Assembly (NCBI RefSeq): GCF_003334315.1
Contig: NZ_QOWR01000016.1
Length of the DNA stretch: 64,000 nucleotides
Direction: 5' to 3' (one strand)
Source: Escherichia coli
GTDB taxonomy: Bacteria > Pseudomonadota > Gammaproteobacteria > Enterobacterales > Enterobacteriaceae
In this document: positions 41,186-47,241 of the stretch, in pieces
Numbering within the stretch: position 1 is the stretch's first letter
Layout of the letters: each line of letters opens with the position of its first letter
Made by a program: the position numbers and the translations under genes
Notes under the pieces: generated by a model
Seen by the model: the letters and a program-made list of their open reading frames with translations, nothing else
The model's database searches: none
Told to the model about the DNA's origin: nothing

Positions 41186-42515
41186 TCGTAAATATTTCGG
41201 TACCGATGGGATTCGTGGTCGTGTAGGGGATGCGCCGATCACACCTGATTTTGTGCTTAAGCTGGGTTGGGCCGCGGGTAAAGTGCTGGCGCGCCACGGC
41301 TCCCGTAAGATCATTATTGGTAAAGACACGCGTATTTCTGGCTATATGCTGGAGTCAGCACTGGAAGCGGGTCTGGCGGCAGCGGGCCTTTCCGCACTCT
41401 TCACTGGCCCGATGCCAACACCGGCCGTGGCTTATCTGACGCGTACCTTCCGCGCAGAGGCCGGAATTGTGATATCTGCATCGCATAACCCGTTCTACGA
41501 TAATGGCATTAAATTCTTCTCTATCGACGGCACCAAACTGCCGGATGCGGTAGAAGAGGCCATCGAAGCGGAAATGGAAAAGGAGATCAGCTGCGTTGAT
41601 TCGGCAGAACTGGGTAAAGCCAGCCGTATCGTTGATGCCGCGGGTCGCTATATCGAGTTTTGCAAAGCCACGTTCCCGAACGAACTTAGCCTCAGTGAAC
41701 TGAAGATTGTGGTGGATTGTGCAAACGGTGCGACTTATCACATCGCGCCGAACGTGCTGCGCGAACTGGGGGCGAACGTTATCGCTATCGGTTGTGAGCC
41801 AAACGGTGTAAACATCAATGCCGAAGTGGGGGCTACCGACGTTCGCGCGCTCCAGGCTCGTGTGCTGGCTGAAAAAGCGGATCTCGGTATTGCCTTCGAC
41901 GGCGATGGCGATCGCGTGATTATGGTTGACCATGAAGGCAATAAAGTCGATGGCGATCAGATCATGTATATCATCGCGCGTGAAGGTCTTCGTCAGGGCC
42001 AGCTGCGTGGTGGCGCTGTGGGTACATTGATGAGCAACATGGGGCTTGAACTGGCGCTGAAACAGTTAGGAATTCCATTTGCGCGCGCGAAAGTGGGTGA
42101 CCGCTACGTACTGGAAAAAATGCAGGAGAAAGGCTGGCGTATCGGTGCAGAGAATTCCGGTCATGTGATCCTGCTGGATAAAACTACTACCGGTGACGGC
42201 ATCGTTGCTGGCTTGCAGGTGCTGGCGGCTATGGCACGTAACCATATGAGCCTGCACGACCTTTGCAGCGGCATGAAAATGTTCCCGCAGATTCTGGTTA
42301 ACGTACGTTACACCGCAGGTAGCGGCGATCCACTTGAGCATGAGTCAGTTAAAGCCGTGACCGCAGAGGTTGAAGCTGCGCTGGGCAACCGTGGACGCGT
42401 GTTGCTGCGTAAATCCGGCACCGAACCGTTAATTCGCGTGATGGTGGAAGGCGAAGACGAAGCGCAGGTGACTGAATTTGCACACCGCATCGCCGATGCA
42501 GTAAAAGCCGTTTAA
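41178..42515 (+). CDS. glmM: phosphoglucosamine mutase
   Basis: 445-aa ORF; phosphoserine loop ISASHNP; overlaps folP end by 8 nt. Confidence 0.97.
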
Positions 42516-42535
42516 AGCGTTAGATAACTGGCTAA

Positions 42536-42560
42536 AAAGGCGGCGATTGTCGCCTTTTTT
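42536..42560 (+). terminator. intrinsic terminator after glmM
   Basis: aaaaaggcggcgattgtcgcctttttt: GC stem flanked by A-run and T6. Confidence 0.6.
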
Positions 42561-42742
42561 CTCAGCGAACACATCGGTTTTGCTGTTTTTTTCCGCAGTT
42601 GATACAATGCGATAAAATTGCCCTTGCGAAGGTCATTCGCTTTGGTTAGTATTCACACCCGCTTCAGTGGGAAAGATTAAAAACTCCCGCTTTATTGGTT
42701 GAAGCATTGGTACGCGGCAACTCCGCAAGGAACAGGTTGATT

Positions 42743-43075
42743 ATGTACGAAGCTCTTTTAGTAGTTTTCCTTATTGTGGCAATTGGCCTTGTTGGTCTGA
42801 TCATGCTGCAGCAAGGTAAAGGCGCTGATATGGGAGCCTCCTTCGGAGCAGGCGCTTCCGCTACGCTGTTTGGTTCAAGTGGTTCTGGTAACTTCATGAC
42901 CCGCATGACGGCGCTGCTGGCAACGTTATTCTTCATCATCAGTCTGGTGCTGGGTAACATCAATAGCAACAAAACCAATAAAGGTAGCGAATGGGAAAAT
43001 CTGAGTGCACCGGTGAAAACCGAACAAACTCAACCAGCTGCTCCGGCTAAGCCGACCAGCGATATCCCGAACTAA
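42743..43075 (+). CDS. secG: protein translocase subunit SecG
   Basis: Track ORF from TTG 42695; ATG 42743 (MYEALLVVFLIVAIGLVGLIMLQQGKGAD..., 110 aa) with AAGGAACAGG SD. Confidence 0.93.
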   Translation: MYEALLVVFLIVAIGLVGLIMLQQGKGADMGASFGAGASATLFGSSGSGNFMTRMTALLATLFFIISLVLGNINSNKTNKGSEWENLSAPVKTEQTQPAAPAKPTSDIPN

Positions 43076-43089
43076 AAAGTAGTATCCGT

Positions 43090-43176
43090 GCCGAGGTGGT
43101 GGAATTGGTAGACACGCTACCTTGAGGTGGTAGTGCCCAATAGGGCTTACGGGTTCAAGTCCCGTCCTCGGTACCA
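43090..43176 (+). tRNA. leuU: tRNA-Leu (anticodon GAG)
   Basis: 87-nt GCCGAGGTGGTGGAATTGGTAGACACG...GGGTTCAAGTCCCGTCCTCGGTACCA with long variable arm and encoded CCA; 15 nt after secG stop. Confidence 0.95.
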
Positions 43177-43186
43177 AATTCCAGAA

Positions 43187-43218
43187 AAGAGACGCTGAAA
43201 AGCGTCTTTTTTCGTTTT
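43187..43218 (+). terminator. intrinsic terminator after leuU
   Basis: aagagacgct gaaa agcgtctttt stem with GAAA tetraloop, followed by T-rich run. Confidence 0.7.
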
Positions 43219-43634
43219 GGTCCTGGTCTGAGGAATGGTTGTCAGGTATCTGTATCTCGTCCAGTTGCTTTACTCGTAGCTGGTACCTTGAAACGATGGT
43301 GCCGGTACGCCTTAGTTATAAACTTTTCCCTTCTGCTGACATAATTGGCACTTTATTGTGTCAACTCCAGTTCCGGTACGAATACGGATATGTTTACTTC
43401 TCGATAAACCATCCTGCTCCTGTCAGTATAACTACTGATGGCTACGTTCTGCGTAATGTTTAGAGACGCATTGATAATGTTATTTAATTACTGAGAACGC
43501 AATGGCCGCATCATTTAAAAAGAAAAAACTAACAGTGTTTCGGTCTGATATGGATCAGAGTTGAAAAACATGTCTGATATAAAATTAAACATTGTTGATA
43601 ATTGTTTATATTGGTTGTGAACTTGGATTTCTGG

Positions 43635-45260
43635 ATGACAGTATTCAACAAATTTGCTAGAACTTTTAAATCTCATTGGTTGTTGTATCTTTGTGTTATT
43701 GTTTTTGGTATTACGAACTTAGTCGCTTCTTCCGGAGCGCATATGGTTCAGCGCTTGCTGTTCTTCGTTCTGACCATCCTGGTTGTAAAACGTATATCAT
43801 CCCTTCCGCTTCGCCTGCTTGTTGCCGCACCATTTGTGTTACTGACTGCGGCAGACATGAGTATTAGCCTCTATTCATGGTGTACCTTTGGTACAACTTT
43901 CAATGATGGATTTGCGATTAGTGTGCTCCAGAGTGATCCGGATGAAGTTGTCAAAATGCTGGGGATGTATATCCCTTATCTATGTGCCTTTGCTTTTTTA
44001 TCCCTTCTTTTTTTGGCAGTAATAATAAAATATGATGTTTCCTTGCCGACAAAAAAAGTGACAGGAATATTATTGCTGATTGTCATTTCGGGCAGTTTAT
44101 TTTCCGCTTGTCAATTTGCTTATAAAGATGCAAAAAATAAAAAAGCGTTCAGTCCATATATACTAGCGTCGCGATTTGCTACCTATACGCCGTTTTTCAA
44201 TCTCAACTATTTTGCTTTAGCAGCGAAAGAGCATCAAAGATTACTCTCAATTGCAAACACGGTGCCGTATTTTCAATTATCAGTCAGGGATACAGGTATT
44301 GATACCTACGTGTTGATTGTGGGGGAGTCTGTACGTGTCGACAATATGTCTTTGTATGGATATACACGCTCTACGACACCGCAAGTTGAAGCACAAAGAA
44401 AACAGATCAAACTGTTTAATCAAGCAATAAGCGGCGCACCTTACACTGCGCTGTCGGTTCCCCTTTCTTTAACTGCTGATTCTGTTTTGAGTCATGACAT
44501 TCATAATTACCCCGACAACATTATTAATATGGCTAATCAAGCAGGATTTCAGACTTTCTGGCTAAGCTCGCAATCCGCTTTTCGGCAGAATGGTACAGCA
44601 GTTACCAGTATCGCCATGCGCGCCATGGAAACAGTTTATGTCAGAGGATTTGATGAATTGTTGTTGCCGCATTTATCGCAAGCATTACAGCAAAATACGC
44701 AGCAAAAGAAACTGATTGTTCTTCATTTAAATGGAAGCCATGAACCGGCTTGTAGCGCCTATCCGCAATCCAGCGCCGTGTTTCAACCGCAGGACGATCA
44801 GGATGCCTGCTATGACAACTCCATTCATTACACAGATAGTTTGCTAGGTCAGGTTTTTGAATTATTAAAAGATCGCCGCGCCTCGGTCATGTATTTTGCC
44901 GACCACGGCCTGGAACGTGACCCTACGAAGAAGAACGTCTATTTTCATGGAGGCAGGGAGGCTAGCCAGCAGGCATATCATGTCCCGATGTTTATCTGGT
45001 ATAGCCCCGTTCTTGGGGATGGCGTGGATCGCACAACGGAAAACAACATCTTTTCGACAGCTTACAATAATTACCTTATTAATGCGTGGATGGGGGTAAC
45101 AAAGCCGGAACAGCCGCAAACGCTTGAGGAAGTGATTGCACACTATAAAGGAGACTCACGGGTTGTGGATGCAAACCATGATGTTTTCGATTATGTGATG
45201 CTCAGAAAGGAGTTTACAGAGGATAAGCAAGGTAACCCCACCCCTGAAGGGCAGGGTTGA
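43635..45260 (+). CDS. yhbX: inner-membrane sulfatase-family protein, putative phosphoethanolamine transferase (EptA/OpgE-like)
   Basis: Track ORF 43602..45260 from TTG; first ATG 43635 (MTVFNKFARTFKSHWLLYLCVIVFG..., 541 aa); N-terminal TM helices then hydrolase domain; visibly AT-rich. Confidence 0.85.
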   Translation: MTVFNKFARTFKSHWLLYLCVIVFGITNLVASSGAHMVQRLLFFVLTILVVKRISSLPLRLLVAAPFVLLTAADMSISLYSWCTFGTTFNDGFAISVLQSDPDEVVKMLGMYIPYLCAFAFLSLLFLAVIIKYDVSLPTKKVTGILLLIVISGSLFSACQFAYKDAKNKKAFSPYILASRFATYTPFFNLNYFALAAKEHQRLLSIANTVPYFQLSVRDTGIDTYVLIVGESVRVDNMSLYGYTRSTTPQVEAQRKQIKLFNQAISGAPYTALSVPLSLTADSVLSHDIHNYPDNIINMANQAGFQTFWLSSQSAFRQNGTAVTSIAMRAMETVYVRGFDELLLPHLSQALQQNTQQKKLIVLHLNGSHEPACSAYPQSSAVFQPQDDQDACYDNSIHYTDSLLGQVFELLKDRRASVMYFADHGLERDPTKKNVYFHGGREASQQAYHVPMFIWYSPVLGDGVDRTTENNIFSTAYNNYLINAWMGVTKPEQPQTLEEVIAHYKGDSRVVDANHDVFDYVMLRKEFTEDKQGNPTPEGQG

Positions 45261-45267
45261 TGTCGAA

Positions 45268-46626
<1,359 letters not shown>

Positions 46627-46958: not shown

Positions 46959-47035
<77 letters not shown>

Positions 47036-47157
47036 CTTTCCCTTAGAGTCCTTTTTCAAATATACTGTGAAGACTTCGGCCTTCGTAGTGGGATTTGAAA
47101 AAATCCTTCTGGAAAGTGCTCCAGACCGCAGTTGCGGTTATAGGGTTCAGTTATATA

Positions 47158-47183
47158 AAGCCCCGATTTATCGGGGTTTTTTG
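47158..47183 (+). terminator. intrinsic terminator downstream of metY (before rimP-nusA-infB)
   Basis: agccccga ttta tcgggg stem followed by ttttttg. Confidence 0.65.
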
Positions 47184-47241
47184 TTATCTGACTACAGAAT
47201 AACTGGGCTTTAGGCCCTTTTTTTATGTCTTGGGGGTGGGC

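Follow-up and report, generated by a model that had tools for sequence, protein, structure and literature searches.

How yhbX came to lie between leuU and argG in Escherichia coli, and what its product may do there, are the questions raised by this locus, which we examined within a window of 64,000 nucleotides from contig NZ_QOWR01000016.1. The analysis makes it very likely that yhbX was acquired horizontally, in a recombination-prone slot bounded by leuU and its terminator on one side and by argG on the other, and the same degree of confidence applies to the explanation developed below as a whole.

The left flank of the variable slot is leuU, a conserved tRNA-Leu(GAG) gene on the plus strand (43090..43176; ARAGORN, and 52.8 bits with the Rfam tRNA model) whose E. 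fergusonii sequence is identical. The following 42 bp (43177..43218, plus strand), in which a terminator scan located an intrinsic terminator (hairpin 43184-43213), are the last sequence common to all cargo haplotypes and place the left junction at 43218/43219; matching past leuU is limited to those 42 bp among the haplotypes that carry the yhbX of the window, an XRE-family regulator gene or an E. fergusonii-type allele. Beyond this junction come an AT-rich region restricted to the E. coli-type haplotype (43219..43634, plus strand; 38.9% GC by base count), presumed to contain the promoter and regulatory region of yhbX, and then yhbX itself (43635..45260, plus strand), which starts with ATG at 43635 and stops at 45258-45260, in agreement with the RefSeq annotation. 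The gene encodes a 541-aa inner-membrane enzyme of the phosphoethanolamine-transferase superfamily (RefSeq annotation and Pfam). The conserved argG (45268..46611, minus strand; ORF list and RefSeq annotation) forms the right flank, and the sequence bears out the earlier observation that only 7 bp separate the yhbX stop (45260) from the convergent argG stop (45268). The right cargo junction lies within this spacer, tgtcgaa (45261..45267), or in the last argG codon. None of the Rfam families matched in the segment 43219-45267.

The DNA between the leuU terminator and the yhbX stop had been described as more AT-rich than its neighbours, and the composition of the segment agrees, with a GC content of 0.422 (0.389 for the non-coding part upstream of yhbX) against 0.517 and 0.519 in the 10 kb on each side. 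Equally AT-rich windows of 2049 bp make up 1.9% of all those in the 64 kb, the others lying at about 1150-4000. The windowed GC and codon-adaptation check proposed in the preliminary description likewise separates yhbX from the surrounding genes: among 44 ORFs, its GC3 (0.421, z = -2.2) is the third lowest, its CAI (0.365, for a mean of 0.547) the second lowest and its Karlin codon-bias distance the second highest. yhbX is hence among the two or three most extreme ORFs for the AT-rich composition and atypical codon use that mark horizontally acquired genes. The lack of a convincing Shine-Dalgarno sequence noted earlier is real, as GGA alone is found at -12 to -10, yet the anti-SD duplex energy of -5.6 kcal/mol, a crude and position-blind measure, equals in effect the median for the ORFs of the window (-5.8), so the feature is not distinctive and translation of yhbX is not obviously impaired.

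The distribution of yhbX is patchy and at odds with vertical descent. YhbX is absent from between argG and leuU in the 13 syntenic Enterobacteriaceae species among the matches listed, and at least eight of these have a gap of just 108-300 bp, leuU thus nearly abutting argG. The gene is not universal at this position, to which it is foreign, as had been proposed. In Kluyvera, Pluralibacter and 'Escherichia sp. ESNIH1', the slot holds unrelated cargo of 1.7-3.6 kb. Within E. coli, yhbX is present in 5167 of 5426 genomes, while in 237 of them the slot contains an AT-rich XRE-family gene together with an argG terminator. The XRE protein has 317 aa, and searches with PADLOC and PHROGs returned nothing informative apart from its HTH domain. 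An AT-rich XRE-family gene, again accompanied by the argG terminator, occupies the slot in Salmonella enterica, Citrobacter koseri and E. marmotae as well, with the same orientation as in the XRE-bearing E. coli, the S. enterica gene being collinear over 1046 bp at 70.6% nucleotide identity.

Could yhbX nevertheless be ancestral and vertically inherited in Escherichia, its AT-richness reflecting low expression and membrane-protein composition, and the other states of the slot being secondary losses or replacements? E. coli and E. fergusonii both carry a yhbX-type gene, with identical left junctions and right junctions within a few bp of each other; moreover, yhbX and the flanks have similar dS within E. 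coli (0.05-0.10 for yhbX), so that the gene predates the diversification of the phylogroups. Between the two species, however, YhbX is only 69.5% identical at the protein level and synonymous sites are saturated (pS 0.75), whereas the flanking ftsH, folP, glmM, secG, argG and nusA share 99-100% identity at a dS of 0.07-0.33, and the region upstream of yhbX is dissimilar to that of both the E. fergusonii and the plasmid copies. The next-nearest homologues, at 41-48% identity, are scattered taxonomically over Buttiauxella, Pectobacterium, Mixta and the betaproteobacterium Microvirgula. The empty or differently filled slot of the 13 taxa among the matches listed, with the XRE gene in Salmonella, C. 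koseri and E. marmotae, also speaks against common vertical descent, as does the binding of the locus by H-NS, which is typical of foreign DNA. An ancestral yhbX is therefore improbable. An initial homologue search had returned near-identical E. coli sequences only and was uninformative as to origin.

The mobility of yhbX-type genes was previously thought to be long decayed, a view that the data contradict: an E. fergusonii-type allele occurs in nine E. coli genomes at 99.1% nucleotide identity, and a 64.5% identical paralogue is carried by plasmid CP057032.1 and by islands of 455 E. coli genomes, beside integrase and IS remnants. A relic of 100 bp lies in the selC island. IS1 and IS3 insertions occur in some strains. 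Nucleotide diversity over ten haplotypes is 0.005 in the leuU-yhbX spacer versus 0.004-0.010 in yhbX; a strong conservation of this spacer among three genomes vanished with this larger set.

The position of yhbX next to a tRNA gene also suggests a different route of entry, in which leuU was the target of an integrase-bearing element that later lost its integrase and att repeats through decay and left yhbX behind. The segment does adjoin leuU, and YhbX paralogues travel in integrase-bearing islands, one of them at tRNA-Sec. Against this route, yhbX is the sole long ORF of the segment 43219-45267, which contains neither an integrase-sized ORF nor an integrase relic, and no recombinase was matched with Pfam or NCBIfam. 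No significant direct repeats or tRNA fragments occur in the segment, and the tRNA 3' end is not repeated; the spacer stretch most similar to leuU is equalled in 17.6% of shuffles (p about 0.18), and a 20-nt leuU similarity at 43284-43303 was for the same reason discarded as a tRNA relic. The ORF list and the repeat and shuffle tests thus concur with the earlier report that integrase and direct repeats are missing. In other words, yhbX displays neither of the hallmarks of tRNA-targeted islands, namely an integrase or its relic and an insertion at the tRNA 3' end with a far direct repeat. Of the initial suggestion of insertion at a tRNA hotspot, the adjacency stands and the role of the tRNA as att site does not: the variable DNA begins 42 bp past the tRNA, and leuU is not the integration site because the junction lies beyond its terminator. 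Three types of cargo, unrelated to one another or deeply diverged, have this left junction in common, and this, with the 42-bp offset, identifies leuU as a conserved flank and no demonstrated att site. Furthermore, variability of the slot extends to species with wholly different cargo and no integrase, and recombination in the flanks accounts for the exchange of alleles. Entry through leuU is in consequence quite improbable.

Horizontal acquisition with exchange through the flanks is also consistent with the polymorphism of argG. The yhbX and XRE haplotypes differ at 15-17 positions per 456 bp in the 3' third of this gene versus 1-2 in the 5' third, and nucleotide diversity is 0.0149 in the 3' half versus 0.0033 in the 5' half; the raised diversity of the 3' half is thus linked to the cargo polymorphism. 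We considered and rejected an import of the XRE haplotype from outside E. coli, as its argG 3' end falls inside the E. coli range, with 12 differences from a B2 strain when B2 and the window haplotype differ by 19. The ancestral argG terminator, GGCCGC-N4-GCGGCC-T(n), is present in 9 of the 13 species examined and in the XRE-haplotype E. coli; it is missing in the window, where a terminator scan of the 7-bp argG-yhbX spacer revealed no terminator-like site. Concomitantly, ArgG ends with KGQ before its stop codon in the window and with K elsewhere. The end of argG and the lost terminator may share a microhomology, AAAGGCC, which is too short for interpretation. The gene pair resembles convergent-gene excludons in that the two stops are separated by 7 bp devoid of a terminator, so that the transcripts must overlap, and that ExcludonFinder lists the pair (PMC12288877). 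It departs from them in that mutual repression of argG and yhbX is only predicted, and in that the yhbX partner would already be silenced by H-NS.

Occupancy by H-NS, which had been suspected from the composition, is documented in K-12, where published ChIP-chip peaks at 3318000-3320779 and 3318628-3320878 (U00096.2) span yhbX (3318010-3319635) and its upstream region (PMC3688515 Table S3). Mapped onto the window with an offset of 1978, verified on metY and leuU (PMC3688515 Table S5) and on the RefSeq annotation, and assuming collinearity with K-12 (99.8% identical, no gaps), the aerobic enriched region covers 42491..45270 and the anaerobic peak about 42392-44642, at a resolution of a few hundred bp and for K-12 rather than the strain of the window. 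The sigma70 ChIP-seq peak upstream of yhbX is weak, at 405 compared with 20010 at the secG promoter (PMC3688515). In a delta-hns/delta-stpA background, an FNR peak at yhbX is unmasked (0.42 to 0.70; PMC3688515 Table S7), and an O2-dependent change of yhbX expression is confined to this background (PMC3688515 Table S11). In K-12, H-NS thus coats the whole segment while sigma70 polymerase binds it only weakly, and yhbX is probably largely silent during laboratory growth. An FNR/CRP-like palindrome, CTGATATGGATCAG, is found at 43545-43558 with a motif match at chance level; motif scans yielded about as many FNR boxes and H-NS high-affinity sites (TCGATAAATT) as chance would give and have no weight by themselves.

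YhbX matches the Pfam Sulfatase model PF00884 over residues 224-467 (E = 3e-56), and its PDB matches are the catalytic domains of EptA, EptC and MCR-1. The alignment to N. meningitidis EptA (5fgn) covers residues 41-459 and pairs E231, T271, H369, D423, H424 and H438 of YhbX with E240, T280, H383, D452, H453 and H465 of NmEptA; we take the roles of these residues, as catalytic Thr nucleophile and Zn ligands, to be established from the EptA and MCR-1 structures. Five hydrophobic 19-mers are found at about 16-34, 41-59, 61-79, 113-131 and 144-162. With a sulfatase-fold domain, about five TM helices and the catalytic and metal-binding residues, YhbX belongs to the YhbX/YhjW/YijP/YjdB superfamily (EptA/MCR type). 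Its whole-protein scores are nonetheless below the curated NCBIfam cutoffs of all the EptA, EptB, CptA and MCR equivalogs: 94.5 and 122.1 bits with the EptA models (cutoffs 660 and 561), 105.1 with EptB (493), 142.3 with CptA, the second-best match (404), and 32-71 with the MCR models (1075 or more). The Pfam EptA_B_N model of the EptA N-terminal domain gave no match in YhbX. The preliminary designation as an EptA-like enzyme modifying lipid A or glucans consequently went too far, only membership in the superfamily being upheld.

YhbX thus shares with the lipid A transferases EptA (PmrC) and MCR-1, including NmEptA, five N-terminal TM segments, a periplasmic sulfatase-fold domain, the Thr nucleophile and the Glu/Asp/His zinc ligands, but nothing ties it to lipid A or polymyxin resistance. 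With CptA/EptC (acting on heptose-I phosphate), EptB (Kdo) and OpgE/YbiP (periplasmic glucans), it has in common the superfamily and the presumed donor, phosphatidylethanolamine. Unlike these paralogues, whose genes belong to the core genome, have a normal GC content and act on known acceptors, YhbX varies between strains and species, and its similarity to OpgE is limited to about 29% identity over residues 198-519. The gene is under purifying selection and would encode an intact enzyme, with a catalytic domain facing the periplasm, that probably moves phosphoethanolamine from phosphatidylethanolamine, via a Thr271 intermediate, to an acceptor in the envelope. That yhbX is instead a functionless, decaying and silent remnant, retained since its deletion would harm the argG 3' end, fits with H-NS binding, very low sigma70 occupancy, the IS1 and IS3 insertions, the 4.5% of E. 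coli genomes that lack the window-type allele and the absence of a clear knockout phenotype in the searchable literature, but is very improbable given a dN/dS of 0.09-0.13, a full-length ORF in about 95% of the 5426 genomes and six intact catalytic and metal-binding residues out of six.

Taken together with a horizontal origin, these data suggest the following history. In the E. coli lineage, an AT-rich segment of ~2.05 kb (43219 to about 45267), comprising yhbX and its own upstream region, would have replaced an older occupant of the slot made of the XRE-family regulator gene and the argG terminator. We infer that the XRE gene with the terminator was probably the earlier occupant and yhbX the replacement, by parsimony over a few lineages that exclude E. 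albertii and other cryptic clades; both cargo types may also be old alternatives, given the yhbX-type allele of the early-branching E. fergusonii. The alleles of the slot most likely pass from strain to strain and between species through homologous recombination in its flanks, not through a tRNA-targeted integrase. With the argG terminator lost in the replacement, transcripts of argG probably continue antisense into yhbX, which could add a second layer of repression to that by H-NS. A bolder version would make the leuU-argG slot a long-lived, trans-species either/or polymorphism, with at least three deeply diverged alleles (E. coli-type yhbX, E. fergusonii-type yhbX and the XRE regulator) shuffled by flank recombination across Escherichia and Salmonella and maintained by balancing selection on envelope modification, for example of a phage receptor or antimicrobial-peptide target, and in which the loss of the argG terminator could couple yhbX inversely to arginine biosynthesis; we regard this version as unlikely.

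The locus is of a well-known and ordinary kind, a xenogeneic islet within a recombination hotspot, and had been annotated before. Like other H-NS-silenced islets of this type, it is AT-rich and occupied by H-NS, has sharp junctions at conserved flanks, accommodates alternative cargos and is accompanied by raised diversity in a flanking core gene. It is unlike them in its very small size, of a single gene, in the either/or of two recurring cargo types, phosphoethanolamine transferase or XRE regulator, and in a junction that removed the terminator and last codon of the neighbouring argG. It offers a compact textbook example of a hotspot for horizontal transfer, without any new principle. There is a practical side as well, since the argG-yhbX spacer and the leuU-yhbX region serve as 'neutral' insertion sites in engineering, and users of these sites are working in an H-NS-bound region devoid of a terminator.

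As of PMC4013655, no function was established for YhbX in the searchable literature, and among the five phosphoethanolamine-transferase paralogues of E. coli it is the last without a reported acceptor in the literature searched. An unrelated regulator gene stands in for it in 4% of strains. The lack of a clear knockout phenotype would be explained by yhbX being foreign, H-NS-coated and nearly silent in laboratory culture, and replaceable, and its function should therefore be sought under de-silenced or overexpression conditions.

The stretch between leuU with its terminator and argG, hereafter the slot, is multi-allelic in E. coli. Among 5426 complete E. coli genomes, 5167 carry the yhbX segment found in the window, 237 carry instead a 1.2-kb segment of 37% GC in which the argG strand encodes a 317-amino-acid XRE-family helix-turn-helix protein and then bears the ancestral argG terminator, and nine harbor a third, fergusonii-type allele.

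Over this region the window matches K-12 at 99.8% identity and strain L6-21 at 100%; its genes run ftsH-folP-glmM-secG-leuU-yhbX, convergent argG, then metY-rimP-nusA. The tRNA-Leu(GAG) gene leuU (43090-43176) and its hairpin terminator (43184-43213) precede yhbX, which encodes 541 amino acids from an ATG at 43635 to a stop at 45258-45260, in agreement with RefSeq, while argG occupies 45268-46611 on the opposite strand. The two stop codons are separated by the seven bases that the preliminary description had counted (45261-45267). The tRNA-Met gene metY (46959-47035) and the rimP leader RNA (47124-47224; Rfam RF01770, 102 bits), upstream of rimP-nusA-infB, are ordinary known features. Published strain engineering treats the non-coding stretches 43219-43634 (leuU-cat-yhbX) and 45261-45267 (the EASY-edit argG-yhbX platform) as neutral insertion sites; H-NS binding covers both, and the argG-yhbX site has no native terminator.

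Windowed GC and codon-adaptation calculations bore out the reported AT-richness of these 2 kb. The segment 43219-45267 has a GC content of 42.2% (38.9% in its non-coding upstream part) vs 51.7% and 51.9% in the 10-kb flanks, and only 1.9% of equally long windows within the 64 kb are as AT-rich, the others lying near 1150-4000. Among the 44 long ORFs of the window, yhbX ranks third from the bottom for GC3 (0.421, z = -2.2) and second from the bottom for CAI (0.365 vs an average of 0.547), and only one ORF exceeds its codon-usage distance. The sole other stretch as AT-rich, 1150-4100 (minus-strand ORFs 2461-3135 and 3307-4071; GC 0.40-0.45, GC3 0.35-0.39, lowest CAI), lies next to large ORFs (4631-10630) and probably represents a further foreign or H-NS-type region. 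An ORF scan, repeat searches and shuffle tests agreed with the earlier reading that the yhbX segment contains neither an integrase-sized ORF nor a significant direct repeat; a 20-nt leuU-like stretch in the spacer was rejected, being matched as well by 17.6% of shuffles. The Shine-Dalgarno sequence of yhbX is indeed weak (GGA alone, at -12 to -10), yet this says little because its duplex energy, a crude measure, equals the window median (-5.6 vs -5.8 kcal/mol).

The slot was then compared across genera via an ArgG scan of species-representative genomes, which gave, among the matches listed, 13 Enterobacteriaceae loci with argG, leuU and secG adjacent. None of these 13 harbors YhbX in the slot, so that the gene is not universal at this position in Enterobacterales, the finding that would have counted against the earlier reading. 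The argG-leuU gap is just 108-300 bp in eight of them (three Citrobacter, Phytobacter, three Enterobacter and one MAG) and 478-565 bp in Pseudocitrobacter and Superficieibacter. Unrelated cargo fills the slot in Kluyvera (1.7 kb, L009:8345-10083; an AraC-like regulator and a carboxymuconolactone-decarboxylase-like ORF), Pluralibacter (2.8 kb, L007:8342-11127; OmpA-like and lipoprotein ORFs) and ‘Escherichia sp. ESNIH1’ (3.6 kb, L013:8342-11920; acid phosphatase, HxlR, SDR and PrpA-like phosphatase). At the P. gergoviae locus (L006), leuU was not found within 7 kb of argG.

The XRE gene (L088:6509-7462 in an E. coli locus) is found in the same slot and orientation in Salmonella enterica (L096:5001-5960; 71% amino acid identity, 70.6% collinear nucleotide identity over 1046 bp), Citrobacter koseri (L098:5001-5960; 73% amino acid identity) and Escherichia marmotae (L100:4001-4954; 89%), and is by parsimony the older occupant. 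Its product (317-319 amino acids) combines a short N-terminal XRE-type HTH with a C-terminal region of approximately 270 residues, and has no match beyond the HTH in Pfam, NCBIfam, PADLOC or PHROGs; homologs with 52-57% identity occur in Pseudomonas, Photorhabdus, Serratia, Acinetobacter and even Oryzomonas. The gene is frameshifted in strain UTAK-1.

The haplotypes share only 42 bp past leuU, so that the left junction falls at 43218/43219, outside both tRNA and terminator; leuU is thus a conserved flank and did not emerge as the integration site it had been taken for. On the other side, 15-17 of 456 sites differ between yhbX and XRE haplotypes in the 3′ third of argG, vs 1-2 in the 5′ third. 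Across ten E. coli haplotypes no part of the locus is as diverse as the argG 3′ half (45268-45939), whose nucleotide diversity (0.0149) is 4-5 times that of the 5′ half or of glmM, consistent with a footprint of exchange by flank recombination. IS1 or IS3-family elements were observed in yhbX of two strains (NZ_CP123963.1 and NZ_CP027307.1) and in the XRE gene of another (NZ_LR883965.1), fitting the report that H-NS-bound DNA attracts transposition (PMC11335895).

In 9 of 13 relative species examined, a GGCCGC-N4-GCGGCC hairpin with a T run lies approximately 10-30 bp past argG. This terminator is missing in the window, where ArgG ends in KGQ, vs lysine in relatives; the yhbX segment would have replaced both it and the XRE gene. 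As a scan of the argG strand up to the leuU hairpin found no terminator-like site, argG transcripts probably extend antisense into yhbX. ExcludonFinder includes argG-yhbX among its excludons (PMC12288877).

H-NS occupancy of the segment is documented by two ChIP-chip peaks (Myers et al. 2013, PMC3688515; U00096.2 coordinates), the aerobic one at 3318000-3320779 and the anaerobic one at 3318628-3320878. After a 1978-bp offset to current numbering, verified on metY and leuU, yhbX corresponds to 3318010-3319635, and the aerobic peak spans its stop, the gene and its upstream region up to secG (approximately 42491-45270 in the window). The silencing proposed earlier is only indirectly supported as regards de-repression on H-NS loss, since an FNR peak at yhbX and an oxygen-dependent expression change were both seen only in an hns/stpA double mutant; the sigma70 signal is 405 at the yhbX 5′ end vs 20010 at the secG promoter (PMC3688515). 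The FNR/CRP-like palindrome CTGATATGGATCAG (43545-43558, approximately 80 bp ahead of the yhbX ATG; two mismatches to TTGAT-N4-ATCAA) may be the site behind this peak, although such matches occur at near-chance frequency in the window.

YhbX displays five hydrophobic segments within its first 162 residues and a Pfam Sulfatase domain at residues 224-467 (E = 3e-56), and aligns with full-length Neisseria meningitidis EptA (5fgn) and with the EptC and MCR-1 catalytic domains. YhbX keeps every residue corresponding to the nucleophile and metal ligands of EptA (E231, T271, H369, D423, H424 and H438), and dN/dS within E. coli is 0.09-0.13, which suggests from sequence that YhbX is probably an active phosphoethanolamine transferase. 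The assignment to lipid A or glucan modification found no support, as scores fall far under all curated cutoffs for the EptA, EptB, CptA and MCR families; no YhbX function is stated in the searchable literature.

Outside Escherichia/Shigella, the closest full-length relatives are scattered at 41-48% identity (Buttiauxella, a Pectobacterium, Mixta gaviniae and the betaproteobacterium Microvirgula; Providencia 36%), and the Buttiauxella-type copy, on a metagenomic contig, is not adjacent to argG. A paralog with 64.5% protein identity (43.7% GC) resides on the 62-kb E. coli plasmid CP057032.1 (L102:438-2099; further loci L103:9001-10674 and L104:4898-5128), as well as in chromosomal islands of 455 of the 5426 E. 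coli genomes, beside integrase and IS remnants and flanked by a small 65-amino-acid ORF and a TPR gene. Approximately 1450 further genomes retain only its 100-bp 3′ relic, which in E. coli B adjoins the TPR gene and an integrase at tRNA-Sec. These copies and scattered relatives identify the YhbX family as mobile cargo.

Such horizontal-transfer hotspots are familiar, yhbX is annotated and the H-NS data are published, so that the interest of the locus is modest. The core of the preliminary description holds: by its composition and its absence from the syntenic relatives listed, yhbX is foreign, and it is H-NS-bound, without integrase or repeats. An insertion whose mobility had long decayed gives way to a probable replacement in a still-active exchange slot. 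E. fergusonii carries a yhbX-type gene there, with an identical left junction, a right junction within a few bases and nothing in common upstream past the 42 bp. The two YhbX proteins share 69.5% identity with saturated synonymous sites (pS 0.75) vs 99-100% identity (dS 0.07-0.33) for ftsH, folP, glmM, secG, argG and nusA, making the alleles far older than the species split, and the 99.1% DNA identity of the fergusonii-type allele in nine E. coli genomes indicates that alleles still cross species boundaries.
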